Shown: positions 10,976 to 64,000 of the stretch, piece after piece
How the letters are laid out: each line of letters begins with the position of its first letter
Position numbering within the stretch: the first letter of the stretch is position 1
Assembly (NCBI GenBank): GCA_016296885.1
Contig: JAEDHT010000006.1
Coordinates: 150 to 64,149 of the forward strand
Reading direction: 5' to 3'
DNA length: 64,000 nucleotides
From: Clostridiaceae bacterium
GTDB lineage: Bacteria > Bacillota > Clostridia > Oscillospirales > Acutalibacteraceae
Position numbers and translations under genes: made by a program
Notes under the pieces: generated by a model
Told to the model about the DNA's origin: nothing
The model's input: only the letters and a program-made list of their open reading frames with translations
Database searches by the model: none

Positions 10976-10996
10976 TATATAAATGGGATGATAAAA

Positions 10997-13213
10997 ATGA
11001 ACAAATTAAGAAAAATCATTGCAATAGCTCTTGTTGCATCTGTGTTAGGAACAGCCGGTGTGTCTGCATCTGCTACTTCTTTTGAAGCAGGCGAAACATC
11101 ACACGCTGTAGTAAGCATTAAGAACAGTGATGCAGAAGTCAAGACAAAAACTATTGCTACAGAAAGCAACGAAGTTATCATCAGCGAAGACTCAATAACA
11201 ATCGATGGCGAAAAAGACGAAAATGACTATGATATATACATATTAAAAGGTGAATATAGCTCAGCCCTAAAGATTGTTATTGATAGTGAAACAAAGAGAG
11301 ATATAAACATTCAGCTTGAAGAATTTACTGTAGATAAAACAAACGAAGAAGCTTTGATTTCATCAGATGCATCTTGCAACATCAATATATCTCTTGCAGG
11401 CAGTGATAAAAGCACAATTAAATCATCAGCAGAAAAAGTAACAGCCTTAATCTCTGCTCCAAACGCAGCGCTCAATATACAGCCAGATATATATAGAGGT
11501 CACAATTCTACCCTCAGTGTAATCTCCACATCAGAAACAGCAGACGAAAACACCTCTGTAGGATGTATCACTGTTAAAAAACTGACATTTGTAGCAGGTG
11601 CAAAAGTAAATTTTGAGAGCAAAGCAGCTGCTGCCATAGTATCTGAAGCAGTTACTGTCAATCCAAATGTAGAAATAAATCTGGATGTAGCTTGTAGCAG
11701 AAAGATTTTCACAAACGACTATAAACAGCAAGGTGGTAAGGTTTCCTTTGGCGAAGAGAATACCGGATCACTCTTCTATCTTAACTATATAAAAGAAACA
11801 AACCACTTTGCAAATTTTAGAGTAATCAGTGGCTCTCTCACAGGCGTTACAGATGGCTATTGCGTTGAGGGCGATGTAGTAAATCAAGCATCAATTATTG
11901 GCGGAACAATACGCTTAGAGTCTAGCTCAAAACCGGTATTCTACGCTAGAAGAAAGTTTCAGGATTTCTTTATCAACGGCGGAAATGTTGAGCTGTTAAC
12001 ATCTGCAGCTCACGCAGTAGAATGTAATACAACTGAGTTTATAAAGTTCAGTAACGAATACGCTGTTATACTTAACGACGGTAATACACACATCACCTGC
12101 TCACAATATCCATTCGCAAGGAAGAATGACGACGGAGAGTTTGAGAGAATGGACGTATACAATCTTTTAAACCAAAAGGTATATCAGCATCACATAGATT
12201 TAGAGAGTGCACAAGGACATAATCTTGCTGAGTTGCTCGAAAAGAACAGTAACGATTTAGGTAGAGTTCTCTATAATGATGTACTTGTAAGCACAAACAA
12301 AAAATTTGTGCTTGAACTTGATGACCTCTATCTTTGGCTTAGTGAGCCACAAGAGGGCGACAACGGTGCACTTATATTCACTAATATTGGATTGACCTTT
12401 AAACACGTTGGAAAGTTTTCTGATTATTTGGAAAATATAGACACCGTTCCCGCTGAAATGGCATATGACAACTCATCATTGTTTGTATTTTTTGATAAAA
12501 GAAACGGCATAAATGGAACTGATAGCGTAACACAAATTACCGACTACAAGCTTCCTGCTAAAATAGATGTGCCTGAAAAAGACGAAATATATGATGATAA
12601 ATTCTTGGGTTACTATGATTCTACCGACTGGACAAAGAAGTATTATGATGAAAATGGTAATCTTGTAGCTGATGCAGATATCAGAGAAAATACATTTTTA
12701 GTTGCACAGTGGCAAACTGATGTTAAGGTTGAGGCCGATCATATGGATGTCCACTTTGTTCTCAATGGTGGCACTTGCGACTTCCATAGCAACTTTATGG
12801 ACAATGATTTTGACTCTAATATACCACTTAGAGAAGATTTCGTAATTCCTGATGCCGTAAAAGAAGGCAAAACATTCCTCGGATGGTATCTTACACCTGA
12901 TGGCAGTGGCGAAAGAATTTTAAATTCTGCTATGCTAATTGACTTGCTCGGCACAGAGAATGTTACATTGTATGCTATTTGGGAGGGCGAAACCTCCACT
13001 AACGCAAAATATGGCGACGCCAACTGTGATGGCGATATAAATATGCAAGATGTAACCACAATTCAGAAAGTTATCGCAGAGCTTATTACTCCGGAAAAGG
13101 CCGGAGATAATTATGCTATAAATTCTGATGTTACACATGATGACAAAACAACAATGGAAGATGTTGTTCTCATTCAGAAATATTTGGCTAAGCTTGTTGA
13201 TAGCCTTGATTGA
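10997..13213 (+). CDS. secreted protein of unknown function with Listeria-Bacteroides repeat and C-terminal dockerin
   Basis: Signal peptide MNKLRKIIAIALVASVLGTAGVSASA (alternative start at 10988). VHFVLNGGT...GKTFLGWY...TLYAIW repeat. Dockerin duplicated EF-hand-like tail GDANCDGDINMQDVTTIQ...DVTHDDKTTMEDVVLIQKYL. Confidence 0.8.
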   Translation: MNKLRKIIAIALVASVLGTAGVSASATSFEAGETSHAVVSIKNSDAEVKTKTIATESNEVIISEDSITIDGEKDENDYDIYILKGEYSSALKIVIDSETKRDINIQLEEFTVDKTNEEALISSDASCNINISLAGSDKSTIKSSAEKVTALISAPNAALNIQPDIYRGHNSTLSVISTSETADENTSVGCITVKKLTFVAGAKVNFESKAAAAIVSEAVTVNPNVEINLDVACSRKIFTNDYKQQGGKVSFGEENTGSLFYLNYIKETNHFANFRVISGSLTGVTDGYCVEGDVVNQASIIGGTIRLESSSKPVFYARRKFQDFFINGGNVELLTSAAHAVECNTTEFIKFSNEYAVILNDGNTHITCSQYPFARKNDDGEFERMDVYNLLNQKVYQHHIDLESAQGHNLAELLEKNSNDLGRVLYNDVLVSTNKKFVLELDDLYLWLSEPQEGDNGALIFTNIGLTFKHVGKFSDYLENIDTVPAEMAYDNSSLFVFFDKRNGINGTDSVTQITDYKLPAKIDVPEKDEIYDDKFLGYYDSTDWTKKYYDENGNLVADADIRENTFLVAQWQTDVKVEADHMDVHFVLNGGTCDFHSNFMDNDFDSNIPLREDFVIPDAVKEGKTFLGWYLTPDGSGERILNSAMLIDLLGTENVTLYAIWEGETSTNAKYGDANCDGDINMQDVTTIQKVIAELITPEKAGDNYAINSDVTHDDKTTMEDVVLIQKYLAKLVDSLD

Positions 13214-51643: not shown

Positions 51644-51807
51644 ATTATAACCTCTCTTTTCTACCTATATTCACGGCGTGTAGTATTATATAACCTAAAA
51701 AAAGTATTGTCAACACTAACCAATTCATACTCCAAAATAGAAAGCACATCTTCAAACCAATTTACTTAGTCTGAAAATGTGCTTATTATGTTTTTCAAAT
51801 AAATATG

Positions 51808-53862
51808 TCAATCAAGTGATTTGATGATATTTGCAAGATACTTTTGAATAGTTGTTACATCCAGCATTGTCACATAGCCATCATGCGAGCAATCAGCATT
51901 TTTCTTTGATGCTTTGCCATAATCATCATATGATGCCAGGCTGGCCAATATTTTTTGAAGAATTGTAACATCTTCGATTGTTACAGTACCATCGCAATTC
52001 ACGTCTCCATGCATTGTATTATCATCTGCAGAAACAGGTGGTATATATTCGCTTCTTTCAAATCCACAAGCTATACAGATATTATCCTCATATATACATT
52101 CCTCATCCTCTGTGTGACCACACTCTTTACAAACACAGCTATGAGTTCCGTCATTGTTTGAGATAGACACGCATTTATGGTTTTCGCCTGAACATTCACT
52201 CTCGTTTATTCCATAAAACTGCATTAGGAACAGCGAATGTTGGTTCTCATTCATTCTATATGATGTAAAATCATCATAGCACTCAATATATTGTAAGAGT
52301 GTCTCCTCTTGTCCATTTACATATTTTGAACTTAGGTTGACTATATAGAATGAATCGTGACCTGCGTCCTCAATATACCATTTAATGTAGTCATCATCTC
52401 TATCAGATAGATATAATCCGCTTCCCTTTTCAGTGCAAGTGAGATACATTCCCTTGCCGAGAAAGCTATAGGTTCCGTCATCATTTTCTATAACTGTGAA
52501 CAGTGCCATATCATCAGAAAGTGTTAAAGCTCCATTGGTGTCAAGCTGAGTAGGAATAGACTTCATTCTTTGTTTTTCCGTGGTTGTGCTTCCCATAGCC
52601 TTGCCTACGCTCGGACAGTAAATAACTACAGAATCACCGTCATTCAAAGTTTTTGTTGAATACAAATATTTAATAATTTCATACTTGTGGCAAACATTAC
52701 AGTAATAAATATTAAGGTTTTCATCCACACATTCAAAACTATGTCCTGTGGCGTGTACCTTTTCTACATAAGAATAATTGCAGTTTTGGCACTCATACTT
52801 ATTGTAGCCATCGGCTGTGCAAGTAGCATTTTGTGATGTTACATGGTAATCATGCTTGCAACCTGGCTCAGTTTCCTCAAAGGTAAGAGCATAACCGGAT
52901 GGTGTCTGCATATCGCTTGGTATAGCCTCGTCAAAGAGCATCCATGTAAGCTCAGGATAATCAATAAATACATTTCTATTACCTTGAATCTGCTCTACAA
53001 GGTCGTTCCTTCTCATTTCCCAAGTGTCTACAGGGTCTTGCTCCATCCACTCTAACAATGTATCTAGACTTTCAAAAATTGGTTTTCCGTCGTTCTGGCT
53101 GTCATCGGCATCCATCTCAGGCAGATTTCTGCCGGTAACCTGCTCAAGCAGATTTGGCTGTTGCCAACGCACATAAACATACATAATTATTCTTGCTACG
53201 TCGCCCTTAACGTTGTCTGCAACCTCTACGAGGTTATCAGCTTTGCTATACCATATAACATCTGTATCATTTGCAACAGCAGTGTCATAATTTTTCAAAA
53301 CACCTTTCACATTGCCAAACATATAGTTGCTTCTGGAGGAGTTTACATAATCCACAGCAGGACGAAGATGATGCAAATCAGATCCACCATTCTTCTGATA
53401 GAATGATGCGTTGCTCTTTGCCCACACGTGCTCTCTATTCATTGTATATTTATCATTTTTTTTGCAATCGGTATAAAAATAATAGTAACCGGGCTCACCA
53501 TCAGCGGCATCGGTGTATTCCCAATAATGCGCCAGGCTGTTTTTTGTATAGCCGGCATACTTTGGATAGTAACTCTGAGTGTCACTCATAAGCCCATAAA
53601 GCGACTCAAACAGCTCGCTTTCCATTGCCGTGAGCGAACTACCGGAATCATTTCCTTCCATAAGCTTTAGATTATCAAAGGAATATTTGCCACTGTAATA
53701 CTCATCAGCATTCTTGCTAAATGATGTGCAAACCTCATGTCTCACACCGTCATTATATGTAAGCTTGGTTGCAGCTGATGCAGAGCCAGCAAATGCGACA
53801 GTGCTTAATATAAGCATCATTGCCAGCATTATAGAAACGGTCATCTTAAATCTTTTCTTCAT
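51808..53862 (-). CDS. secreted endonuclease I family nuclease with Cys-rich modules and C-terminal dockerin
   Basis: GGAGG RBS and signal peptide MKKRFKMTVSIMLAMMLILSTVAFAGSASA. NREHVWAKS...DLHHLRP...N..RSN is the endonuclease-1 signature. Dockerin GDVNCDGTVTIEDVTILQ...SHDGYVTMLDVTTIQKYL. Confidence 0.85.
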   Translation of the reverse strand: MKKRFKMTVSIMLAMMLILSTVAFAGSASAATKLTYNDGVRHEVCTSFSKNADEYYSGKYSFDNLKLMEGNDSGSSLTAMESELFESLYGLMSDTQSYYPKYAGYTKNSLAHYWEYTDAADGEPGYYYFYTDCKKNDKYTMNREHVWAKSNASFYQKNGGSDLHHLRPAVDYVNSSRSNYMFGNVKGVLKNYDTAVANDTDVIWYSKADNLVEVADNVKGDVARIIMYVYVRWQQPNLLEQVTGRNLPEMDADDSQNDGKPIFESLDTLLEWMEQDPVDTWEMRRNDLVEQIQGNRNVFIDYPELTWMLFDEAIPSDMQTPSGYALTFEETEPGCKHDYHVTSQNATCTADGYNKYECQNCNYSYVEKVHATGHSFECVDENLNIYYCNVCHKYEIIKYLYSTKTLNDGDSVVIYCPSVGKAMGSTTTEKQRMKSIPTQLDTNGALTLSDDMALFTVIENDDGTYSFLGKGMYLTCTEKGSGLYLSDRDDDYIKWYIEDAGHDSFYIVNLSSKYVNGQEETLLQYIECYDDFTSYRMNENQHSLFLMQFYGINESECSGENHKCVSISNNDGTHSCVCKECGHTEDEECIYEDNICIACGFERSEYIPPVSADDNTMHGDVNCDGTVTIEDVTILQKILASLASYDDYGKASKKNADCSHDGYVTMLDVTTIQKYLANIIKSLD

Positions 53863-53930
53863 GGCAATATCCTCCAATTTTATTTTTAAAAATTTTTTCC
53901 TTTTTTAAGTTTACATCTGTTTATTTAAAT

Positions 53931-54359
53931 TTAATTATTGTTTAAATGGTTTTTTCTATAATCCATATAATTTTGAAGAATTATAGTAGCGGCCACGCTA
54001 TCCACAACACCTTTACGTTTTTTCCCTCTTACGTTTGTATCGTTGAGATAGCTATGTGCTGTAATAGTAGTGCATCTCTCATCATATAGGCACACCTGCA
54101 ATGACGTTTTTTCTTCTATTGCAGTGGCAAGCAATCGTGCATTTTGAGCACTCTCTCCCTCGGTACCGTCCATATTTCTCGGCAAACCAACCACAATCAT
54201 CTCGCATCTATTTTCGGTTGCCTTCTTTGCTATCTTATCTGATAAAACAGAAAAATCAGACTCATTTATCACACAAAGAGGAGAAGCAAGCATCTCGCTT
54301 TTGTCACATATTGCAAGGCCTGTGCGCACTTTGCCATAATCCACGCCAAGTATTATCAT
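53931..54359 (-). CDS. ruvX: Holliday junction resolvase-like RuvX (YqgF)
   Basis: MIILGVDYGKVRTGLAICD...VVGLPRNMDGTEG...DER.TT. Confidence 0.9.
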   Translation of the reverse strand: MIILGVDYGKVRTGLAICDKSEMLASPLCVINESDFSVLSDKIAKKATENRCEMIVVGLPRNMDGTEGESAQNARLLATAIEEKTSLQVCLYDERCTTITAHSYLNDTNVRGKKRKGVVDSVAATIILQNYMDYRKNHLNNN

Positions 54360-54383
54360 TCGATTTACCTCTTATTTTTTCAA

Positions 54384-54935
54384 TTACCAGCTACAGAGCC
54401 TCTCGCCCTTAACCTTTTGAGAAAATTCGGAAATTCTCACTAATGGCATATCTGACTCAGAATCAGAATAAAACTCGTCTATCTTTTTATCTCCAAACAC
54501 TTCACGGTATCTTCTCACTTTTTCTTCTCCACTACAATTAACACCTGTGTATTTTCCTGTGTGTGGATCTACTCTGGATGCCATAAGGTTCTTAATTTTC
54601 AATCTATCGCAAGCAGGCTTCAGCAAAAATTCGGGTGATGCACTTATAATAACATCATTTTCACACTGTTTTTGCAGATACCATGCTTTAATATTTTTTA
54701 TATGTGAATCCCAAAAGTCAGGCAAATCAGTATCTATATCTACGTATTTCAGAAACTCATACATACTTTCTTTAAACTGAGTTTTTGTAATCTTCTTTAC
54801 TTTGAAAAGAAAAAAATTCTTAGCAAGTTTTGGTGTTAACTTTAATATTATTTTATGTCTTTTGAGACAAAAAAGATAAAAATGAAAGGTGCTGTCCCCA
54901 TTGTATATCGTTTTATCAAAATCATAGACATTCAT
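54384..54935 (-). CDS. HAD-IB family hydrolase
   Basis: MNVYDFDKTIY (DxDxT) and C-terminal FYSDSESDMPL. Start at CAT 54933-54935. Confidence 0.7.
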   Translation of the reverse strand: MNVYDFDKTIYNGDSTFHFYLFCLKRHKIILKLTPKLAKNFFLFKVKKITKTQFKESMYEFLKYVDIDTDLPDFWDSHIKNIKAWYLQKQCENDVIISASPEFLLKPACDRLKIKNLMASRVDPHTGKYTGVNCSGEEKVRRYREVFGDKKIDEFYSDSESDMPLVRISEFSQKVKGERLCSW

Positions 54936-55213
54936 AAACCCAGCAGCACCCCAAAAATATATGTTATTTGGTGAAAAACATAACACCAAATCGATTTTTC
55001 ACTATTATAGCATAACACATAATATAAATCAATAAATATTTAGTAAATTTATGCTAAATTTACTATAGAAGCAAATAATAACTATCAATGATGTATAAAA
55101 TTAATCTCTAATTGTTTTTTCTAAAAGTTGGTTGAAAAATATTGCTAATTAGTGTTATAATTTATAGCAGAATATTGATATAATGATATTTGGAAGAAAG
55201 GATTGATATAAAA

Positions 55214-56086
55214 ATGACAAAATCAAATTATACTATAATGGCAGATTGCGCTTGTGATATATCAGCAGAGCTATGCGAGAAATGGAATGTAAGATCTGTG
55301 CCCATGGAATTCACTTTTGAGGGAGACGACAAAGCCTATGTAAGCGGTGATATGACCTCTTCTGAATTTTACAACAAGATGCGTAATGGTGAATCTCCAA
55401 GCACTACCGCTGTTAACGTGGATATATACAGAGAGCTTTTTGAAGAAGAGGCAAAGCAAGGTCATGATGTTTTGCATCTCGCTTTTTCTAGCGGACTTAG
55501 TGCTACTTGCAATTTTGCAACAATGGCTGCAAAAGAAATTATGGAAAAATATCCTGATGTAAAAATCTCTGTGGTAGATAGTCTAAGTGCATCTGCAGGA
55601 TACGGTCTACTACTTTATCTTCTCACAAAGAAGCGTGATGACGGAGCAAGTATGGATGAAGCTGTGCAATACGCATTAGAAACCAGAATGCACTTGTGTC
55701 ACTGGTTTACTGTGGACGATCTTGTATATCTAAAAAGAGGCGGAAGAATAAGCGCCAGTGCAGCATTTGTTGGCGGTATACTCGGTATCAAGCCTGTGCT
55801 TCATATGGATAATGAAGGTCACCTCATAAATATGCTGAAAGTAAGAGGAAGAAAGGCATCTTTAAAGGCTATAATAGATAAATATGATGAGTTGGCACAG
55901 ACACCAAGAGAAGGAACTGTATTTATCTCTCATGGCGATTGCATAGACGATGCAAAGGAGCTTGACGATATGCTCTTCGAAAAATACGGAGTCCGTGCCG
56001 AAATTATCACACATATTGGCCCTATCATAGGATCTCACTCAGGACCAGGTACGATAGCATTTTTCTTTATTGGTAAAGAAAGATAA
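55214..56086 (+). CDS. DegV family fatty-acid-binding protein
   Basis: ADCACDIS..L......V.MEF.F, SPSTTAVN, VDSLSASAGYGLL, GGRIS and GPIIGSHSGPGT. Confidence 0.9.
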   Translation: MTKSNYTIMADCACDISAELCEKWNVRSVPMEFTFEGDDKAYVSGDMTSSEFYNKMRNGESPSTTAVNVDIYRELFEEEAKQGHDVLHLAFSSGLSATCNFATMAAKEIMEKYPDVKISVVDSLSASAGYGLLLYLLTKKRDDGASMDEAVQYALETRMHLCHWFTVDDLVYLKRGGRISASAAFVGGILGIKPVLHMDNEGHLINMLKVRGRKASLKAIIDKYDELAQTPREGTVFISHGDCIDDAKELDDMLFEKYGVRAEIITHIGPIIGSHSGPGTIAFFFIGKER

Positions 56087-56107
56087 TCTATAAATATTGC
56101 AAAATTC

Positions 56108-56150
56108 ACGCCCGATATCAAGGTTTTTTCTCGATATCGGGCGTATTATT
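56108..56150. terminator. bidirectional rho-independent terminator
   Basis: Perfect 12-bp stem ACGCCCGATATC (56108-56119) / GATATCGGGCGT (56133-56144), with T-rich sequence after it. Confidence 0.8.
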
Positions 56151-57821
56151 TTATTCTATAAGACCTGCCACCATTAACTGCATAGATGTAACGTCAGACA
56201 TTTTTATCCTGCCATCTTTGTCCACATCGCAACAATAAAACATATCGCTGTTTCTTATCGGCATTTCGCTAATGCACGCTATAATTCTTTGTAATAAAAC
56301 TACATCCTGCATAGTCACCTTGCCATCTGCATCAATATCACCACGCAACAATCTCTCATAACCGTTCATTCCAAGCGATTTTACCATATCGGGATAATTC
56401 ACAAAGGCAACATCCAAATCCACATTACCGGATATACCGGGAATTTTTCCTTTTGAGGTGTATTGCCATAAGCCATAATAAGTATCTGTGGTCTTATTGC
56501 TTTCTGTCCAATGTGCCATCCAAATTTCTCCGTTCTCGTCAATTTTATCTCTATCCAGCATATGGTTATACCAATACAGCGATGAATATGTTCCCGCCAA
56601 AAATCCTGCATCTGCCAAAGTCTGCATAAAGGTGACACAAATCTCTGTGCGAACCTCATTATCAAGCTTCTGCTGATTTGCATCCTCTATATCTATATAC
56701 ACGGGGTATTCAAATTTTTTGTCTTGTATGAGGTTTATCAGATCATCAGCATCCTTTTTTGCCTCTTCAGCACTAACAGCGTATGTGTAAAAATAGCATC
56801 CCAAATCCAATCCGGCTTTTCGGGCCTTTTCATAATATTCCTCAAATCGGTTATCCACTCCATCGGTAAAACCGGCACGGAGTATCGCAAAATCCACACC
56901 ACCGGATGCCACCTTATCCCAATCTATACTTCCTTGCCAGCTAGACACATCTATACCATATGCAAATATAGGAGTGTAACTTTTCTCTGTTTTGAATGTT
57001 TGTTTCTTTGTTGTGATTTTTTGACTGTCTATCACTACATAGAACGAATACATATATGTGGTGTCCGGCGATAGCAAGATATCTAGCGTTTTTTGTGTGT
57101 CATAGCAAAGCGAAACAAATGAATCATACGTGCTGTTTTTCTCGCTGTATCCTTTAATTTTATTTTTATCTTTATCAAATAGTACAAATCCCATTTCTGT
57201 GATTTCTTTATTATTTGGATTAAAAGCGGTTGCGTTAATGGTAGCATTTGTATCGTTTATCGTATTAAGTGTAGTGTATGTGGTAAGCGTTTCTTTACCT
57301 GTTGTTCTCTCAAAGCTCCATAATATATTCTCGTCATTGGCTTTATCAGTCATTTTTGCATTGCCTTTTTCGTCAACAGTTACAAAACAATCAATATTAT
57401 TCGAGTTATGTATGATATAGGCATCTCCCTGTTTGCTTAATTTCCACATCATTGTGTTTTCGGCAAAAAAATTGAATATGTTAACATTATTTCCGCTTTT
57501 CACGTTGTCTGCATCTGCATTTAGCACCCTACCGCTCACTACACTCGATTCAGGGCGTAAATATACGCCCTCCGGTGCATCATATAGCATAAACTTTTGG
57601 CTATCAGCATCGGCTTTTTCACTTACAGACACATTTTGTTGGTTGTTGTCCTCACCCATATCCACTGTGAGATAAAAACCTGTATTTATATTTTTAATAT
57701 AGTAACATCCACTCTCTATGCTGACATAATCATATTTTTCATCAGCATATGAGGCAACTATGCCAATCCGAAAAATTACAGAAAGACATACTGCAAAGCT
57801 TATACATTGTCGTAGCCTCAT
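56151..57821 (-). CDS. secreted GH25 muramidase with N-terminal ricin-like lectin region and C-terminal dockerin
   Basis: YGIDVSSWQGSIDWDKVASGGVDFAILRAG...LGCYFY is the GH25 signature. Dockerin GDIDADGKVTMQDVVLLQ...DVDKDGRIKMSDVTSMQ. N-terminal signal-like MRLRQCISFAVCLSVIFRIGIVASYA. Confidence 0.85.
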   Translation of the reverse strand: MRLRQCISFAVCLSVIFRIGIVASYADEKYDYVSIESGCYYIKNINTGFYLTVDMGEDNNQQNVSVSEKADADSQKFMLYDAPEGVYLRPESSVVSGRVLNADADNVKSGNNVNIFNFFAENTMMWKLSKQGDAYIIHNSNNIDCFVTVDEKGNAKMTDKANDENILWSFERTTGKETLTTYTTLNTINDTNATINATAFNPNNKEITEMGFVLFDKDKNKIKGYSEKNSTYDSFVSLCYDTQKTLDILLSPDTTYMYSFYVVIDSQKITTKKQTFKTEKSYTPIFAYGIDVSSWQGSIDWDKVASGGVDFAILRAGFTDGVDNRFEEYYEKARKAGLDLGCYFYTYAVSAEEAKKDADDLINLIQDKKFEYPVYIDIEDANQQKLDNEVRTEICVTFMQTLADAGFLAGTYSSLYWYNHMLDRDKIDENGEIWMAHWTESNKTTDTYYGLWQYTSKGKIPGISGNVDLDVAFVNYPDMVKSLGMNGYERLLRGDIDADGKVTMQDVVLLQRIIACISEMPIRNSDMFYCCDVDKDGRIKMSDVTSMQLMVAGLIE

Positions 57822-57925
57822 AATAAGTTCTTCTCCTTTTCTAAATACTCAACCCGATAAAAGCATAATGGAGCTATCGCATTAAAGTTAATATGCACAA
57901 ACAAACGAAATTGTTATCACAATCG

Positions 57926-58057
57926 GCTCCCTCTGACGAGGGAGCTGTCGAGTGAAACGAGACTGAGGGAGAGAAAAAACTGCTTTTTGCAGAATTTTTA
58001 CCTTTTCTCTCCCTCCGTCAAAACTTCGTTTTGCCACCTCCCTCATCAGAGGGAGGC
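57926..58057 (+). repeat. hairpin-rich intergenic repeat element, copy 3 (full length with palindromic hairpins at both ends)
   Basis: Same core as 36705-36807. 5' hairpin GCTCCCTCTGACGAGGGAGC (57926-57945) and 3' hairpin CCTCCCTCATCAGAGGGAGG (58037-58056). These are near reverse complements of each other (17 of 20). Confidence 0.8.
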
Positions 58058-58106
58058 AAATTGTGCAAATTTCCTCTATTGCAACAGCCCCATCTTACTT
58101 TTTTAA

Positions 58107-61100
58107 TTATTCATTAATAGCATTTGGGTAACGGTATAATTCATAGTCTGTACCTGACAGCATTTCACACTCCGGCAGTGGCTCAATTTCCCTTATTATG
58201 ATTTTAGCATTCTTGTAAGGCTTGCCTAATTTATATAGTCCTTCAAATACAACTTCACCAAATTCGTTGTATTCCCTGCCCATACCATTGGACACGCCAT
58301 CACGCACAGAACCTTCATACACAAGATACTTGCCATCATTGGAATATCGCCTCATAAATACGCAGGCATCGTTTTTGAATATACACTCAGCGATTACTAT
58401 TCCATTTTGAATAAGATTAACTCTTCCGTCGGGCTTACCATTTGTGAAGCAACCCACATAGCCCTCTTTATTGCTATTCAAGTATAATCCTATACCGTTG
58501 TAAACGTCGTTTTCCCATAAACCTGTGTAGACAGAATCTAAATCCACCTGTGTACCAAAACCACTTCTGATTCCATTTACGAGTTCTCCGCTATATACCA
58601 ATTCTCCGCTTTTATAGAGGTTTCCGGTTCCGTTTTTGATACCATTCTCAAACTCTCCGTCGTAGATCAACACACCGTTCTCATATAATCTACCTTTTCC
58701 GTGTTTGACCCCATCTCTTAGCTCGCCTATGTAGTAAGGTTCGCCGTTTGAGCTTATGCATCTGCAGAATCCGGAGGATTTTCCGTTATTGAAGTTGCCC
58801 TCTATCACTTCTCCATTTTCTTTGCATAGTCTTCCCTCGCCATGATAGATGCCGTCTTTCCACATTCCGCTATATTCTATTGTTCCGTCATCTCTGAACG
58901 AGATACCAAATCCGTTTTTCTCTCCGCCCTTGATTGCACCATTATATACAAGCTTACCGTTTCGATCAAAAATTGCACTTGTATCCATAGCAACATCATC
59001 TTTGTATCTGCTAACCTCAAAGCCACCGTCAGATGTAACTGTCAATCCGGCACCGTTCTTGATTCCGTCTTCCTTATAGCCTGCAAAAAGCATATTGCCC
59101 TCTGCATCAAACACTGTTTCCATGCCTACAAGCTCGTTGTTTTCCCATCTTCCTATACGCATCATATCATGAGTATTATTAAGCGCTACACCAAAACCAT
59201 TGCGTTTATTTTTCTTCCAACTTCCCATGTGGCACAGCTTACCGGACTTGTAATAGTACACACCAAATCCGTTACGCTTATCGTCTTTATATTCACCCTC
59301 ATAAGCTGTTCTGCCCGATGCCATGAAGGTTCTTCCGAAGCCGTCTCTGTTGCCTTGACTTAGGTCACCTATATAGTAATAAGACTTTGTAGGAGAAACA
59401 GATATGATTTTATCTACAATGTATCCTATATTATTATCAGGCTCCTCCATAGGCTGTTCTAACAGAGCTTGTTCTGTAGGAATGTCATATTGTGATGGTT
59501 CAACATTTGTTTCGTCTATTTTTTCATCTATCATTTCATCATTATTTTCCGGAATAACAAATTGTTGACTTTCATCAATCGCATTATCATATGGCACATC
59601 AACATCCTGCATAAATTGACCAAACATATCGTCATCATTGGTATCCGGAGTGTCGTTCCATATGCCATTGTCAAATAGATTGTCCTGTGTGTCAATGTTA
59701 TTTTCTGTTTCGATATTGTCAGTTGAGGTATCCTCTATCCTATCACCCAGCAAATCAAAATCATCAACCATATTGTCAGGCTCTTCTTGATACTGAGTCA
59801 TATCTACCTGAGGGACTTCTCCAACCTGATATTCATTTACATCAGCTTGGCCATAATAATCATCAGCCATAGGCATATCAATATCATTATAGGGCTGATC
59901 CTGATAGAGCATATCATCAATATAGTCACCTTGCGTATCCATCATACCATACTCCGGCATTGGAACATCTTCGGTGTTCAGGTATTGTTCATCATATGGG
60001 TAATCTGCATACTCTTGAGCAAACTGATCACCATTGTCATATTCAGGCATATCTTGCCCAAACTGCCCGTCGTTGTCATACTCAGACATATCTTGAGCAA
60101 ACTGACCTCTGTTGTCATATTCAGGCATATCTTGCCCAAACTGCTCGCCATCATCATACCCATACATATCTTGACCAAACTGCTCGCCGTTGTCATATTC
60201 AGGCATATCCTGATAGCCCAGATTATTATCATAACCGAAAGCATACTCATCAGAATTATCATAAATATCATTGAGCATATCATTATAATAATTATCAGGA
60301 ACATTTGTACCGTTTGAGACATTCTCATCAGGTCTGTTCTTAGCAATTATACGAGGTGTTTCATAATTACCACTGTTTTTAGGTTTTACACGGCCTATAT
60401 CTACACTCTCGTATTCCTCATCAAACCTTGCTTCCAGCTCCCCGGCATTCATAGGAATGTTTATTTTATACTCGCCATTTAGGTTTTCCACCGCATCGAT
60501 ATCAACGTAAAATCCATTTTCACGGTCTACATTCTTGTCATAGCTTTCCGGTTCAGCTCTAAACTCTGACTTCAATTTTAGCAGAGTTCTGCCCCAGTTA
60601 ATGGCTTCTTCATATGGTGCATAGTAAAAATAACCATCTGTAGTGTGTGCAGATACTTCCGGCACTTGAGTTAGATCCCTCATTTTTTGCATTTCCAACT
60701 CACTGTCAGGCATAAGGCAGGGATATAGTATGGTTTCTACTCCCTTTTCTATTAAAAGCAGATTGATGTTATTTGATGAGAAGTGGCATTTTACCGTCTT
60801 TGCAGGCCCAACCTGATCCCACGTAAAATACTCTGTTTTCATCCAGTCATGTTCTCTGGAAAAATATGTCTTTTTCTGCGCAAAAAAGTCAACAGAATTT
60901 ATAGTTTCTATAATATAGTGATCGCTCGAAATATTTATAGACTCTACCAGGACATTCTTCTCATATTTTCTCCATCTTAGGGGCAGGTTTTTTGAAAGGC
61001 TGTATAGATATTTGCACTTTGAGCCTCCCCAGGTTTCTGTAACCTTGCCTTGTGGAACATATCCCTTTTCATAATATTGCTTACGCACATTTGCAAGAAC

Positions 61101-61196
61101 ATTGGAATTTGGTCTTTCAATGTCAAATGGTGTTACCGATACAAGCAATATGTGAGTATTTGTTCGATCAAAAGTCTTGATATATTGTTCATTCAT
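58107..61196 (-). CDS. 1029-aa cytoplasmic MORN-repeat protein with unknown N-terminal domain and D/Q/Y-rich central repeats
   Basis: GAGGGG RBS and no signal peptide. The C-terminal ~430 aa hold about 17 MORN-like units (YEGEYKDDKRNGFGVYYY, YIGELRDGVKHGKGRLY and others). The centre has 13-aa repeats DMPEYDNGEQFGQ. Confidence 0.8.
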   Translation of the reverse strand: MNEQYIKTFDRTNTHILLVSVTPFDIERPNSNVLANVRKQYYEKGYVPQGKVTETWGGSKCKYLYSLSKNLPLRWRKYEKNVLVESINISSDHYIIETINSVDFFAQKKTYFSREHDWMKTEYFTWDQVGPAKTVKCHFSSNNINLLLIEKGVETILYPCLMPDSELEMQKMRDLTQVPEVSAHTTDGYFYYAPYEEAINWGRTLLKLKSEFRAEPESYDKNVDRENGFYVDIDAVENLNGEYKINIPMNAGELEARFDEEYESVDIGRVKPKNSGNYETPRIIAKNRPDENVSNGTNVPDNYYNDMLNDIYDNSDEYAFGYDNNLGYQDMPEYDNGEQFGQDMYGYDDGEQFGQDMPEYDNRGQFAQDMSEYDNDGQFGQDMPEYDNGDQFAQEYADYPYDEQYLNTEDVPMPEYGMMDTQGDYIDDMLYQDQPYNDIDMPMADDYYGQADVNEYQVGEVPQVDMTQYQEEPDNMVDDFDLLGDRIEDTSTDNIETENNIDTQDNLFDNGIWNDTPDTNDDDMFGQFMQDVDVPYDNAIDESQQFVIPENNDEMIDEKIDETNVEPSQYDIPTEQALLEQPMEEPDNNIGYIVDKIISVSPTKSYYYIGDLSQGNRDGFGRTFMASGRTAYEGEYKDDKRNGFGVYYYKSGKLCHMGSWKKNKRNGFGVALNNTHDMMRIGRWENNELVGMETVFDAEGNMLFAGYKEDGIKNGAGLTVTSDGGFEVSRYKDDVAMDTSAIFDRNGKLVYNGAIKGGEKNGFGISFRDDGTIEYSGMWKDGIYHGEGRLCKENGEVIEGNFNNGKSSGFCRCISSNGEPYYIGELRDGVKHGKGRLYENGVLIYDGEFENGIKNGTGNLYKSGELVYSGELVNGIRSGFGTQVDLDSVYTGLWENDVYNGIGLYLNSNKEGYVGCFTNGKPDGRVNLIQNGIVIAECIFKNDACVFMRRYSNDGKYLVYEGSVRDGVSNGMGREYNEFGEVVFEGLYKLGKPYKNAKIIIREIEPLPECEMLSGTDYELYRYPNAINE
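60009..60210 (-). repeat. intragenic 39-nt tandem repeat, ~5 units
   Basis: Units starting CATATCTTG(C/A)(C/G)CAAACTG... at 60048, 60087, 60126 and 60165, plus a degenerate unit at ~60011. Confidence 0.8.
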
Positions 61197-61496
61197 GGCA
61201 TCAGCCCCTCTACATTTGTATACAAAATGATTATATTATAAAACAGTTCTTTTTTCAATAAAGATTAAGAACTTTTTTGCATATTTTGTTACAATAAAAA
61301 AATAATTTAAGCGATATAACAAATCTTTTCTAAAACATACGATAAAAGAGTAATAACAGCCAACATAAAAGGGGGCTGGATTTACAAAAAATTCTCCTTG
61401 CATTGCACTTCACAATGTGTTGCAAATCAAAGGAGAATTAATTTTAAATAAAATTTCATATTTAATTATGCTCGTGAGGTTTAGCATATAGATTAT

Positions 61497-62141
61497 TTAT
61501 CTGTTATTCAGATTTTCTATTAGTTCTTCAAGCTTTTCTGCAAATTTACCTATATGTATTCCATCTATAAATTTATGATTAACTTCTAACGAAATGTTTA
61601 ATTTTACGCTTTCGCTCTGTTTTGTATATTTGCCCCATGCAATTCTTGGTATAGAATCATCAAGTGCATCCTTTGAGATCATATCACGTTCATTTGTAAG
61701 CGCTGTTAGTTCTATCCAAGGCAATGAGGATATGTATATTAGATTGTCGCCCTCCTCCGCCATATCAATAAAATGAGCTTGATTTTTACTCTTTTGGGAG
61801 GCTTCTGAACAAAATGACCTTATATCGTGCCCACAGCATGGCATGGTAACAATATGAAAATTTTCACTATCCTTATGCATATCAGTGAAACTTGGGAGTC
61901 TTTCATCATAATATATTATTTCGCCATTCATGGCACCATAATGAAAAGCCTCTACTTCATTTATTGCCCTTGTGCAGATATAAACCATAGAATAATAAAA
62001 AGATAGCTTATTTTCTTTTACAAATTTATATAGTTTTGTAATATCTACCGTAAATGTAATCATATAAAATGGATGTGATATTTCGGAGAAAAAATCATAT
62101 ATTTCCCGTCTGTTCCATTCCTCTTTATTTATGATCTTCAT
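61497..62141 (-). CDS. CatA-like (type A chloramphenicol acetyltransferase family) O-acetyltransferase
   Basis: 214 aa. The W.RREIYDFF N-terminus, SLPWI and the catalytic-region VNHKFIDGIHIGKF (compare HHAVCDGFH in CAT). GAGGGG RBS. Confidence 0.75.
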   Translation of the reverse strand: MKIINKEEWNRREIYDFFSEISHPFYMITFTVDITKLYKFVKENKLSFYYSMVYICTRAINEVEAFHYGAMNGEIIYYDERLPSFTDMHKDSENFHIVTMPCCGHDIRSFCSEASQKSKNQAHFIDMAEEGDNLIYISSLPWIELTALTNERDMISKDALDDSIPRIAWGKYTKQSESVKLNISLEVNHKFIDGIHIGKFAEKLEELIENLNNR

Positions 62142-62177
62142 TTATAAAATCCCCTCACGCTGAATTGTTAAAAAACA

Positions 62178-62214
62178 GGCGACTGAAAGGAAATCTCTCA
62201 GCCGCCATTTTTTT
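62178..62214. terminator. bidirectional rho-independent terminator
   Basis: GGCGACTGA (62178-62186) / TCAGCCGCC (62198-62206) with one mismatch, flanked by A5 and T7. Confidence 0.7.
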
Positions 62215-62222
62215 AGTATAAA

Positions 62223-64000
62223 TTAGCCTATTTTTGCAATCATTCTTTGTATCATTACAACGTCCTCAAGAGTAATCTCTCCATCGCCATTAATATCTGC
62301 ATTTACCATGCCAAGATCAGACAATGTTTTTACAAGCTTTGCTATATACTTTTGAGTTAGAACTACATCTTCCATATCAACCTTTGAATCACAGTTTACG
62401 TCGCCCGGTAAAGATATGGTTGGTCTGTCCTGATTGTCACTGTCAATATCTGTATCCACATCAGATTCTGTGTTTACATCATTTTCTGTGTCATCATTAT
62501 TATCCAAATCGCTGTCAAGATTGGATTCGCTATCTGTTGTAACATCAGAGTCTGTTGTAGGCTCTTCAGGATCAACTTCCTCATCGCTGTCGGTATCTAC
62601 AGCATCTCCTATAAAATAGTCAGAGGAAGATGAAACTCTAACCTGAACAGTATTGCTATAGATATATGGCACACAGCAAACATTTACAACATCCCCTGCG
62701 CTAATACCATCAGGATACTCTGCAGGCTTAAAGCAGTTAAGCTCATTGCCATCCTCATCTGTTAGGGTAATATTTGAGCTGTCATATTCACCCAGAGTTA
62801 CATCCCTTAGCACTACAACTGTAGAAAGGTTATCCTTTAAATTGTAAAAATCACATTCTACTGCTGGGATAGGTTTGTTATTTCTAGAAATAGTTTTCAC
62901 AGTGGAAGGCATTTTAATCTGTCGAACACTTTGATGCTCTGACACAGCACCATACACCTCAACAACTGAATTCATCTCATATTTGCCGGCTAAAACACCC
63001 GACTGATCATATAACTGGAAGCTATGCACTTCGCCGTCTTCGTCTACTTCTTCAAGAATAACAGTGCTATCACCATAAATATAAGCAACCTGTCCTCTAG
63101 TGGTTATCACTTTGCCTACACGAGTATTCTTTGCCTCTTCAAGAGTAATATAGTTCGCAGGCTCTGTATCAGATGTTGGTGTGTTATCAGTATCAGGAGA
63201 TGGCTTTTCTGTACCGGAATTATCGTCGCTATCAGTATCGTAGATAATATCACCCGATGTACCATTACCCCAGATAACATTGATAAGATCTGGACAGTCT
63301 ATATATGGATTGCGGTTGCCCTGATAATCATGTGCAACATTGTTTCTGTTGATTTCATAATCATCAACAGGATCAATGGCATTCCACTTTACAAGTGTGT
63401 CATATCCGCCAACCATAACTTTATCTATCAGATTGTATAATGATCCATAATGCGTTACCATATAGGCATAAATACGAGCTATATCGCCTTTGTATTCATC
63501 TACAACCTCCATAGTATGATCATCGCCAATATAAGCCACTACATAACTACTACAGTTGTCGTTGCAATAATATGGTTCTCCACCTTTTGCATCACCATAT
63601 GGAAAACTACCATGAACAGAATTATCATCATTATAGGTAGGCCTAATATGGTGGAGATCATTTCCTCCGCCTGATTTGCCATATAAACCGCCGGACTTTG
63701 ACTGTGGCCAAACGTGCTCACGGTTCCAATTGCTAGACGTTGTATAATCGTTTGTATAGAAGAGCCTAAAACCCGAATTTGTGTCATTTGCCAGTCTCTC
63801 TGACTTCTTATACATAGCTGCAAGAGAGCTACTGCCCGTGCCTGAATAGCTTGGGTGCTTAGCGTCTGTACCCCTTACGGTTTTACCATTAGAAATGGTT
63901 GTCGAAGAGGTTGTATAATTTATCAATGCACGCAAGTCTTCGATGACAGTTTTAGGATCATCCCTATTAACAAGATCCTCTAAACCGCCAAGAACATCAT
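62223..64000 (-). CDS. secreted endonuclease I family nuclease with OB-fold-like region, acidic linker and C-terminal dockerin (N-terminus outside window)
   Basis: NREHVWPQSKSG...DLHHIRP...N and GNRNPYID. Dockerin GDVNCDSKVDMEDVVLTQ...DINGDGEITLEDVVMIQ. The reading frame stays open upstream of the listed TTG to the window edge. Confidence 0.85.
   Translation of the reverse strand, partial: DVLGGLEDLVNRDDPKTVIEDLRALINYTTSSTTISNGKTVRGTDAKHPSYSGTGSSSLAAMYKKSERLANDTNSGFRLFYTNDYTTSSNWNREHVWPQSKSGGLYGKSGGGNDLHHIRPTYNDDNSVHGSFPYGDAKGGEPYYCNDNCSSYVVAYIGDDHTMEVVDEYKGDIARIYAYMVTHYGSLYNLIDKVMVGGYDTLVKWNAIDPVDDYEINRNNVAHDYQGNRNPYIDCPDLINVIWGNGTSGDIIYDTDSDDNSGTEKPSPDTDNTPTSDTEPANYITLEEAKNTRVGKVITTRGQVAYIYGDSTVILEEVDEDGEVHSFQLYDQSGVLAGKYEMNSVVEVYGAVSEHQSVRQIKMPSTVKTISRNNKPIPAVECDFYNLKDNLSTVVVLRDVTLGEYDSSNITLTDEDGNELNCFKPAEYPDGISAGDVVNVCCVPYIYSNTVQVRVSSSSDYFIGDAVDTDSDEEVDPEEPTTDSDVTTDSESNLDSDLDNNDDTENDVNTESDVDTDIDSDNQDRPTISLPGDVNCDSKVDMEDVVLTQKYIAKLVKTLSDLGMVNADINGDGEITLEDVVMIQRMIAKIG

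Follow-up and report, generated by a model that had tools for sequence, protein, structure and literature searches.

Most descriptions of cohesin-dockerin systems still present them as machinery for breaking down polysaccharides, and yet cargo of other kinds has been documented in several of them. In Ruminococcus bromii, the protein Sca2 binds dockerins of peptidases and leucine-rich repeat (LRR) proteins, and a "more general" role in surface anchoring was assigned to it (Ze et al. 2015, PMC4611034). In R. flavefaciens FD-1, dockerins are carried by protease, serpin, LRR and transglutaminase proteins (PMC2930009), and dockerin cargo other than carbohydrate-active enzymes (CAZymes) is documented in Limousia too (PMC12632915). 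GH25 lysozyme activity of the R. champanellensis cellulosome is attributed to Morais 2016 (Environ Microbiol 18:5112) in PMC13463774. Cargo beyond polysaccharide breakdown, which a preliminary description of the DNA considered here had pointed to, is thus already established for R. bromii, R. flavefaciens FD-1 and R. champanellensis. In this work, we analyze a stretch of 64,000 nucleotides (nt) from contig JAEDHT010000006.1 of a Clostridiaceae bacterium, called the window below, whose last 12 kb hold three minus-strand open reading frames (ORFs) for secreted, modular, dockerin-terminated proteins: two Endonuclease I nucleases, named Nuc1 and Nuc2, and a GH25 muramidase. We favor the explanation, with a probability of roughly 0.55, that these active-looking secreted enzymes are held on the producer's own surface and serve nucleic-acid salvage there.

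The source is a metagenome-assembled genome (MAG) of an uncultured gut bacterium, 1.83 Mb in size and 83% complete, which was studied within a sample of four genomes of its genus (the source G000 together with G022, G151 and G152; two are 99-100% complete). The nearest database records are labeled "MAG: Clostridia bacterium". A GH13/CBM26/dockerin protein of 1,236 amino acids (aa), L032 (G000:C17:40971-44678), matches R. bromii Amy10 end to end (E 2e-294), and on this match the source MAG is classed as an amylosome-type relative of the starch-degrader R. bromii. All three ORFs were confirmed where the preliminary description had placed them, and their Pfam matches (PF04231, PF01183, PF00404) exceed the curated gathering cut-offs. 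The features are the following:

51742..51784, minus strand, terminator-like hairpin 3' of Nuc1, 19-bp stem
51808..53862, minus strand, Nuc1 gene, 684 aa (ORF and Pfam)
51835..52011, minus strand, Nuc1 dockerin, residues 618-676, PF00404, Cys-loop / long-linker subtype
52207..52671, minus strand, Nuc1 beta-trefoil, lectin-like, residues ~398-552
52903..53760, minus strand, Nuc1 Endonuclease I (His-Me finger) domain, residues ~35-320, PF04231
56151..57821, minus strand, GH25 muramidase gene, 556 aa (ORF and Pfam)
56184..56342, minus strand, GH25 dockerin, PF00404, a sequence outlier among the dockerins of the genome
62178..62206, minus strand, terminator-like hairpin 3' of Nuc2, 12-bp stem
62223..64000, with the 5' end 145 nt past the window, minus strand, Nuc2 gene, 640 aa (ORF and Pfam)
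62238..62408, minus strand, Nuc2 dockerin, PF00404, main group
62601..63155, minus strand, Nuc2 accessory OB-like module, residues ~331-515

Nuc1 opens with a signal peptide, followed by Endonuclease I, a Cys/His motif, the beta-trefoil, a Cys motif and a Cys-loop dockerin. Its Endonuclease_1 match covers residues 122-304 (E 1.6e-29, 103.7 bits with a cut-off of 25), the predicted catalytic pair is E144-H145 (in NREHVW), and the predicted magnesium ligand is N174 (in DYVN). In an alignment with 21 homologues of 35-89% identity, R143, E144, H145, W147, the DLHHLRP motif, N174 and the GNRN motif are invariant, and the whole architecture is common to these homologues as a conserved family. Nuc2, complete in the assembly (G000:C19:62375-64294), starts with the signal peptide MKFFKK...AFA, predicted to be cleaved before Q, and continues with Endonuclease I, an acidic linker, an OB-like module of ~185 aa, a D/T/S-rich linker and a main-group dockerin. 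Its Endonuclease_1 match is of similar quality (E 2.1e-30, 106.7 bits, same cut-off), and R142, E143, H144 and N175 are among the residues that are invariant in an alignment of 17 homologues. The two nucleases, whose catalytic domains share ~30% identity, are old paralogues.

Membership in the Endonuclease I group was judged against the E79/H80 pair and N127 of Vibrio vulnificus Vvn. N174 of Nuc1 and N175 of Nuc2 align with the magnesium-ligand Asn of that enzyme (N109 of the chain, which is N127 of the precursor), and the equivalence of the Glu-His pairs rests on the Pfam match and the motif. The AlphaFold2 (AF2) model of the Nuc2 nuclease domain, with a predicted local distance difference test (pLDDT) score of 75-92, matches Vvn 1OUP as well as 2G7E and 2PU3 (E 2e-6 to 1e-5, TM-score ~0.6). 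In the Nuc1 model, the active-site loops (residues 140-177) have pLDDT <50, and the top Foldseek matches come only from the trefoil.

The GH25 protein consists of a signal peptide, a ricin-type beta-trefoil (35-153), a module of ~110 aa without assignment (175-285), the GH25 domain (290-463) and a dockerin (494-546). Pfam recognizes RicinB_lectin_2 at residues 35-87, as expected from the ricin-like N-terminus noted previously, Glyco_hydro_25 at 290-463 (E 5.8e-31, 108.6 bits with a cut-off of 27) and Dockerin_1 at 494-546; no cohesin was detectable with Pfam in this protein. The GH25 domain aligns with pneumococcal LytC (2WW5) and retains D291, D377 and E379, the last of which aligns with the Glu replaced by Gln in the inactive LytC mutant entry 2WWC.

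Selection was estimated by the Nei-Gojobori method as the ratio of nonsynonymous to synonymous substitution rates (dN/dS, omega) for a single genome pair, G000 and its congener G022 (89-93% protein identity), and all omega values given here refer to that pair. The ratio is 0.12 for Nuc1, 0.14 for Nuc2 and 0.10 for the GH25 protein (0.047 for its GH25 domain). Every folded module of the three proteins falls between 0.04 and 0.18, and the acidic linkers are relaxed (0.34-0.49). Degeneration of the catalytic residues, named in the preliminary description as an outcome that would overturn it, was not seen: the residues are intact and purifying selection acts on every folded domain, so that inactive enzymes appear unlikely.

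The accessory modules differ between the nucleases. The Nuc1 trefoil is modeled with pLDDT ~87-94 and finds beta-trefoils and ricin-B-like lectins in Foldseek (TM-score ~0.77, E ~1e-5); Pfam gives a weak RicinB_lectin_2 match (E 0.015), and conserved Cys/His motifs flank the trefoil at residues 335-392 and ~560-600. The accessory module of Nuc2 (omega 0.096) had been called an oligonucleotide/oligosaccharide-binding (OB) fold-like region. Direct confirmation failed: there is no Pfam match at E<=10 and no PDB profile match, and the AF2 model of this half of the protein has pLDDT <50, with faint matches to EF-P and RPA32 at a probability of at most 0.12. The label has indirect, transitive support: relatives of the module (P0269, P0264, P0250) match the OB-fold family PF01336 (25.5-40.9 bits, cut-off 27), and also DUF5689 (PF18942), in the homologous stretch. 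The ~180-aa module is mobile. A scan of 1.84 billion representatives found it in 109 representative clusters, often with 2-6 copies per protein. Repeats of this number occur in giant metagenomic proteins of ~2,000-2,500 aa (P0243, P0249-P0263), some of which add PHP phosphoesterase, FIVAR, DUF5689 or a dockerin; these proteins form an uncharacterised class of very large surface proteins.

Tethering would rest on the pairing of dockerins and cohesins. The Dockerin_1 scores of the three proteins are 37.2, 35.4 and 29.1 bits (cut-off 22.9), and two calcium-loop segments are present in each dockerin: GDVNCDG and ADCSHDG in Nuc1 (GDVNCDG...YDDYG...ADCSHDG; omega 0.09), GDVNCDS and ADINGDG in Nuc2 (omega 0.036), GDIDADG and CDVDKDG in the GH25 protein. 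Three cohesin ORFs were found in the source genome (C50:12817-13569, C50:13588-14256 and C55:17979-18686). Each encodes a protein of 223-251 aa in which a single cohesin lies between a signal peptide and a C-terminal anchor. The two C50 proteins end in a transmembrane helix and a basic tail, and the C-terminus of the C55 protein consists of APVTG followed by a hydrophobic stretch and KKRA, taken here for a sortase-type signal. APVTG is a non-canonical (A/S)PxTG sorting motif, as is also seen on a mini sortase substrate beside two sortases at ~6.8 kb in the window. Small cohesin ORFs of this kind occur in all four genomes of the genus, with two or three per genome.

No multi-cohesin scaffoldin was found in the 83% complete source MAG by Pfam and by an iterative hidden Markov model (HMM) built from its own cohesins, and none was found in the four genus genomes; the HMM gave nothing past the three cohesins, and no cohesin-bearing amylase of the Amy4/Sca1 type was detected in the source genome. 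A cellulosome or amylosome in the strict sense, with a multi-cohesin scaffoldin or a multimerising cohesin-bearing enzyme, was thus not recovered by these searches, and surface-anchoring cohesins were. Display on a scaffold, as the preliminary description had it, therefore stands in one part only: cohesin-dockerin display is plausible, with cohesins present and dockerins under selection, and single-cohesin anchored proteins were found in place of a scaffold. By analogy, the arrangement looks like surface tethering of the R. bromii Sca2 kind and not like a multi-enzyme scaffold. The two C50 cohesin genes follow genes for three proteins whose dockerin is their only Pfam domain (695, 687 and 282 aa), and the five genes form a sca-like cluster (G000:C50:7409-14256). 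These dockerin-only proteins could hide divergent cohesins or adaptor functions.

An alternative view holds that the dockerin-like modules are non-docking tails, which act as calcium-binding stabilisers or linkers on enzymes that the cell just secretes into the medium. Outside cellulosomes, dockerin-like modules that lack a cohesin partner are widespread, only three cohesins face about 70 dockerins in this genome, and the outlying GH25 dockerin fits such a view as well. We consider it quite improbable, since surface-anchored cohesins are present in 4/4 genus genomes, the three dockerins are among the most constrained parts of their proteins (omega 0.036-0.135), and cohesin binding has been demonstrated by experiment for like dockerins from R. 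bromii (PMC4611034). Dockerin subtypes are, moreover, common to unrelated cargos in the genome, as expected from co-evolution with shared cohesins.

These subtypes emerged from clustering of 69 dockerin segments of the source genome. A "Cys-loop / long-linker" group (n=15) has one Cys per calcium loop and an "H.DYG" linker that is three residues longer (GDVNCDG...H.DYG...NSDCNHDG). It comprises loci L027, L039, L012, L062, L035, L050, L014, L033, L059, L057, L063, L048, L029, L022 and L061. Its cargo includes Nuc1, both plain Metallophos proteins (which thus share the Nuc1 dockerin subtype), two papain proteases, an LRR protein, a Cleaved_Adhesin protein, an SH3 array, VWA/Flg_new proteins and four proteins without any Pfam domain besides the dockerin; a starch module occurs in none of the 15. 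The Nuc2 dockerin belongs to the main group, which also takes in the dockerins of a 5'-nucleotidase and of CBM26 proteins. From these sequences, the Cys-loop subtype suggests a separate cohesin partner and a sorting code. A fourth dockerin protein of the window (10988-13210, plus strand, 741 aa) combines a Flg_new repeat with a long-linker dockerin and lies upstream of a PqqD cassette.

The wider family of Nuc1 bears on tethering too. Among its 120 best relatives, 33 carry a dockerin, 57 carry S-layer homology (SLH) repeats and 30 carry neither, and Nuc1 orthologues of more distant organisms have other dockerin subtypes. Dockerin-Endonuclease_1 proteins are thus common in sequence databases, and searches of open-access literature gave no paper on a nuclease that naturally bears a dockerin. 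Judging by these module counts, the anchor of Nuc1-type nucleases is swapped to suit the surface system of the host, which argues for surface retention as a selected property.

The preference for nucleic-acid salvage comes from what the genus lacks. Pfam six-frame searches found PurE and PyrF in none of the four genus genomes and PurH and PurD in neither of the two genus genomes searched, and the same searches gave matches in 12-14 of the 14 genomes used as controls. Members of the genus thus appear to be auxotrophs for purines and pyrimidines alike. Exactly two Endonuclease_1 genes are present in each of the four genomes, and a dockerin-bearing 5'-nucleotidase of the UshA/CD73 type is kept in all of them as well; in the source genome, it is L060 (G000:C23:2499-4775), which matches 1USH (E 8e-32). 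The dockerin of L060 (residues 187-241) sits within the Metallophos domain, in a region similar to those that hold the internal dockerins in Amy10 and Amy16 of R. bromii (9QF8, 9QF9), and in G151 and G152 the dockerin segment precedes the N-terminal part of Metallophos, which is a permuted module order. A Bmp-type nucleoside-binding lipoprotein is encoded in G000 and G022, the two genomes searched. In a 55% relative, a Metallophos-dockerin gene lies 5 kb from the Nuc1 orthologue; a PDB search with the Metallophos-dockerin protein L039 of the source genome gave no substrate assignment. With nucleotide synthesis seemingly missing from the genus, extracellular nucleic acid is the most likely source from which the nucleases obtain nucleotides. 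Nucleotide scavenging was one of several functions offered in the preliminary description, and the genus-wide lack of PurE and PyrF lends it specific support.

We infer cohesin binding, substrates and physiological role of the three enzymes from their domains, catalytic residues, signal peptides and selection, together with the presence of cohesins and the absence of nucleotide-synthesis genes. Each C-terminal dockerin would plug into one of the few single-cohesin proteins anchored in the membrane or wall, and Nuc1 and Nuc2 would probably cut extracellular DNA and RNA beside the cell. Tethered phosphoesterases, namely the two Metallophos proteins and the UshA/CD73-type 5'-nucleotidase, would then turn the fragments into nucleosides and phosphate. 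The nucleosides would be taken up by the Bmp-type nucleoside ATP-binding cassette (ABC) system, and this salvage would supply the purines and pyrimidines that the genus apparently cannot make. The Nuc1 beta-trefoil and the Nuc2 OB-like module probably hold the enzymes on substrate or matrix. The GH25 protein would cleave peptidoglycan, either of the cell's own wall or of the wall of neighbouring or dead cells.

Several points weigh against this explanation. The Nuc2 OB-like module is also found in proteases with a dockerin and in other dockerin proteins that lack a nuclease, and it need not, on this distribution, bind nucleic acid. Elsewhere, Endonuclease I enzymes serve in biofilm control, escape from neutrophil extracellular traps (NETs) and control of transformation. 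The GH25 dockerin, as a sequence outlier, has no obvious partner. PurE, PyrF and the other missing enzymes were called absent on the basis of Pfam six-frame searches of MAGs. In the wider family, Endonuclease_1 occurs in 5 of 150 other genera and PurE is missing in 30 of 150, and no clear link between presence of the nuclease and absence of PurE was found in this small sample of related genomes (PurE is absent in 2/5 nuclease carriers vs ~20% overall). Finally, divergent ruminococcal cohesins are known to escape sequence searches, according to PMC13463774, and a larger scaffoldin may therefore be hidden.

The enzyme family itself invites a different explanation, in which surface nucleases manage matrix or foreign DNA. 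They would trim extracellular DNA (eDNA) to remodel or escape a biofilm on starch granules or feed particles or, in another form of the idea, restrict transformation by degrading DNA that arrives from outside, in the manner of V. cholerae Dns. Nuc1 and Nuc2 belong to the same family as Dns and Vvn, which control biofilm eDNA and transformation (PMC3212620), and the Nuc1 trefoil could bind matrix glycans. This explanation is decidedly unlikely in our view, as it leaves unaccounted for the dockerin-bearing 5'-nucleotidase and phosphoesterases that are conserved in a nucleotide-auxotrophic genus.

The dockerin repertoire of the whole genome raises a further alternative. About 70 ORFs carry a dockerin, nearly all with a signal peptide. 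The Pfam census counts 7 Peptidase_C1, 6 BspA-type LRR, 7 Flg_new, 5 Lectin_like, 5 CBM26, 4 SH3 arrays, 3 GH25, 3 PG_binding_1, 3 Metallophos, 2 Endonuclease_1, 2 alpha-amylases, 2 lipases (Lipase_3) and one each of 5'-nucleotidase, Amidase_6, Phage_lysozyme2 and polysaccharide deacetylase. As a rule, dockerin cargo in this genome is thus not a CAZyme, and about eight of the dockerin proteins, the GH25 protein among them, are hydrolases or binders of peptidoglycan. Tethered GH25 and other wall hydrolases might thus lyse neighbouring or dead bacteria, whose contents would be digested by tethered papain-type proteases, lipases, nucleases and phosphoesterases, and the cohesin-dockerin system would mainly be a machine that digests microbial biomass. 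The census, dominated by enzymes against every class of cell polymer, agrees with this: for the wall, the GH25 proteins, Phage_lysozyme2, amidases and the PG_binding and SH3 arrays; for other polymers, the seven Peptidase_C1, two Lipase_3, two nucleases and three Metallophos proteins; and a dockerin is carried by only two amylases. The genome is small and auxotrophic, and the lectin-like beta-trefoils of the GH25 protein and Nuc1 could target foreign surfaces. Nothing, however, marks the target of the GH25 protein as foreign over self peptidoglycan, and GH25 enzymes often serve as autolysins. Attack is not indicated by any immunity gene, toxin-delivery system or regulation, and the three genes are not co-located with other hydrolases. 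As the main explanation, lysis and feeding is therefore unlikely; competitor killing by dockerin-tethered enzymes is possible, as is a broader role in feeding on microbial biomass, given the many tethered proteases, lipases and wall hydrolases.

A bolder version of the salvage explanation is offered tentatively, and we regard it as rather doubtful when taken as a whole. It states that the lost de novo purine and pyrimidine synthesis has been replaced by a complete cohesin-dockerin-tethered salvage line, which would run from the two nucleases through the Metallophos phosphoesterases and the UshA-type 5'-nucleotidase to Bmp nucleoside uptake. Jointly with this, dockerin subtypes would sort cargo onto different anchors, with Nuc1, phosphoesterases, proteases and adhesins on the Cys-loop side and Nuc2, the 5'-nucleotidase and CBM26 proteins on the main side, and the "amylosome" would be used in the main for feeding on microbial biomass and nucleic acid and not for polysaccharide.

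The three genes had been described as an arsenal within 12 kb, and this does not hold for a functional locus. RuvX, a HAD hydrolase, DegV, a MORN-repeat protein and a CAT-like acetyltransferase are encoded between them, so that the three are separated by housekeeping genes, and a terminator-like hairpin follows each of Nuc1 and Nuc2. When ~70 dockerin genes are placed at random, at least one triplet within 12.2 kb arises in 98.5% of simulations, and ten triplet positions are observed. Adjacency is not conserved either, as the GH25 gene is not next to the Nuc1 orthologue in the 55% relative and the two nucleases of G152 lie on separate contigs. A functional island of three genes was rejected on these grounds. 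The closeness of Nuc1 and Nuc2, unlike that of the three genes, is non-random: they are the only two PF04231 genes of the source genome and lie 10 kb apart.

The DegV-HAD-RuvX neighbourhood of Nuc1 recurs both in an 89% relative and in the 55% relative, and the order and orientation HAD-RuvX-(BioY)-Nuc1 persist down to the 55% relative (window 53931-54989, minus strand, L075). The gap between RuvX and Nuc1 is only 53 nt long, and transcription of Nuc1 along with housekeeping genes is therefore possible. Positions 58107-61196 (minus strand), which lie between GH25 and Nuc2, encode a protein of 1,029 aa without a signal peptide. It contains a long acidic low-complexity stretch of degenerate "DMPEYDNGEQFGQ" repeats and C-terminal MORN repeats.

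The single parts of the system are ordinary: the enzyme family and the tag are known, the principle has been published for proteases and GH25, and the surprise to a specialist is moderate. Its significance lies in the combination. Few of the about 70 dockerin proteins touch starch, and the remaining ones include enzymes that act on protein, lipid, peptidoglycan and nucleic acid, all this in an apparent nucleotide auxotroph. If tethered nucleases and a 5'-nucleotidase do feed salvage, this would explain the survival of reduced gut and rumen Clostridia and would add nucleic-acid turnover to the roles of amylosome-type systems. It would also provide natural orthogonal dockerin-cohesin pairs (at least two dockerin subtypes and three cohesins) for surface-display engineering.

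Among described systems, the R. bromii amylosome is similar in having dockerin-bearing GH13 and CBM26 proteins (L032 matches Amy10, 9QF8, over its full length), single-cohesin anchoring proteins, and dockerins on peptidases and LRR proteins. It differs in scale and cargo, as R. bromii L2-63 has 26 dockerins and the source genome about 70 with mostly non-amylolytic cargo. Nucleases and a 5'-nucleotidase are part of the dockerin cargo in the source genome and are not reported in the R. bromii papers searched, and a cohesin-bearing amylase like Amy4/Sca1 was not detected in the source genome. The GH25 of R. champanellensis likewise places a muramidase within a ruminococcal cohesin-dockerin system; according to PMC13463774, the ScaK-like protein is a GH25-fused scaffoldin with a cohesin, whereas the GH25 protein described here has a ricin-type trefoil, a 110-aa module without assignment and no detectable cohesin.

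With the periplasmic or extracellular enzymes Vvn (1OUO/1OUP), V. cholerae Dns/EndA (2G7E) and E. coli EndA, Nuc1 and Nuc2 share PF04231, the conserved Glu-His pair and the magnesium-ligand Asn, and the Nuc2 model superposes on solved Vvn/EndA structures. Identity to known Endonuclease I in structural alignment is only ~18%. The Vvn/Dns/EndA enzymes are single-domain Gram-negative proteins of ~210 aa with several disulfides. Nuc1 and Nuc2 are, in contrast, proteins of 640-684 aa from a Gram-positive anaerobe, with an N-terminal extension, accessory modules and a dockerin.

Among wall-anchored scavengers of nucleic acid in Firmicutes, the nuclease YhcR of Bacillus subtilis is held by a sortase anchor and also contains OB-folds and a 5'-nucleotidase domain; Shewanella uses DNA as a phosphorus source with ExeM, ExeS and UshA. 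Like these systems, the source genome would combine a surface-bound nuclease with a 5'-nucleotidase and putative OB-type accessory domains. Unlike them, it relies on another nuclease family, has the activities on separate polypeptides and would use non-covalent cohesin-dockerin anchoring instead of a sortase or secretion. A parallel is also provided by the SLH-anchored Endonuclease_1 proteins of other Clostridia, uncharacterised database relatives which belong to the same nuclease clade and often have the same Cys-motif and trefoil region as Nuc1; their repeats bind the wall polymer directly, whereas the Nuc1 dockerin needs a cohesin partner.

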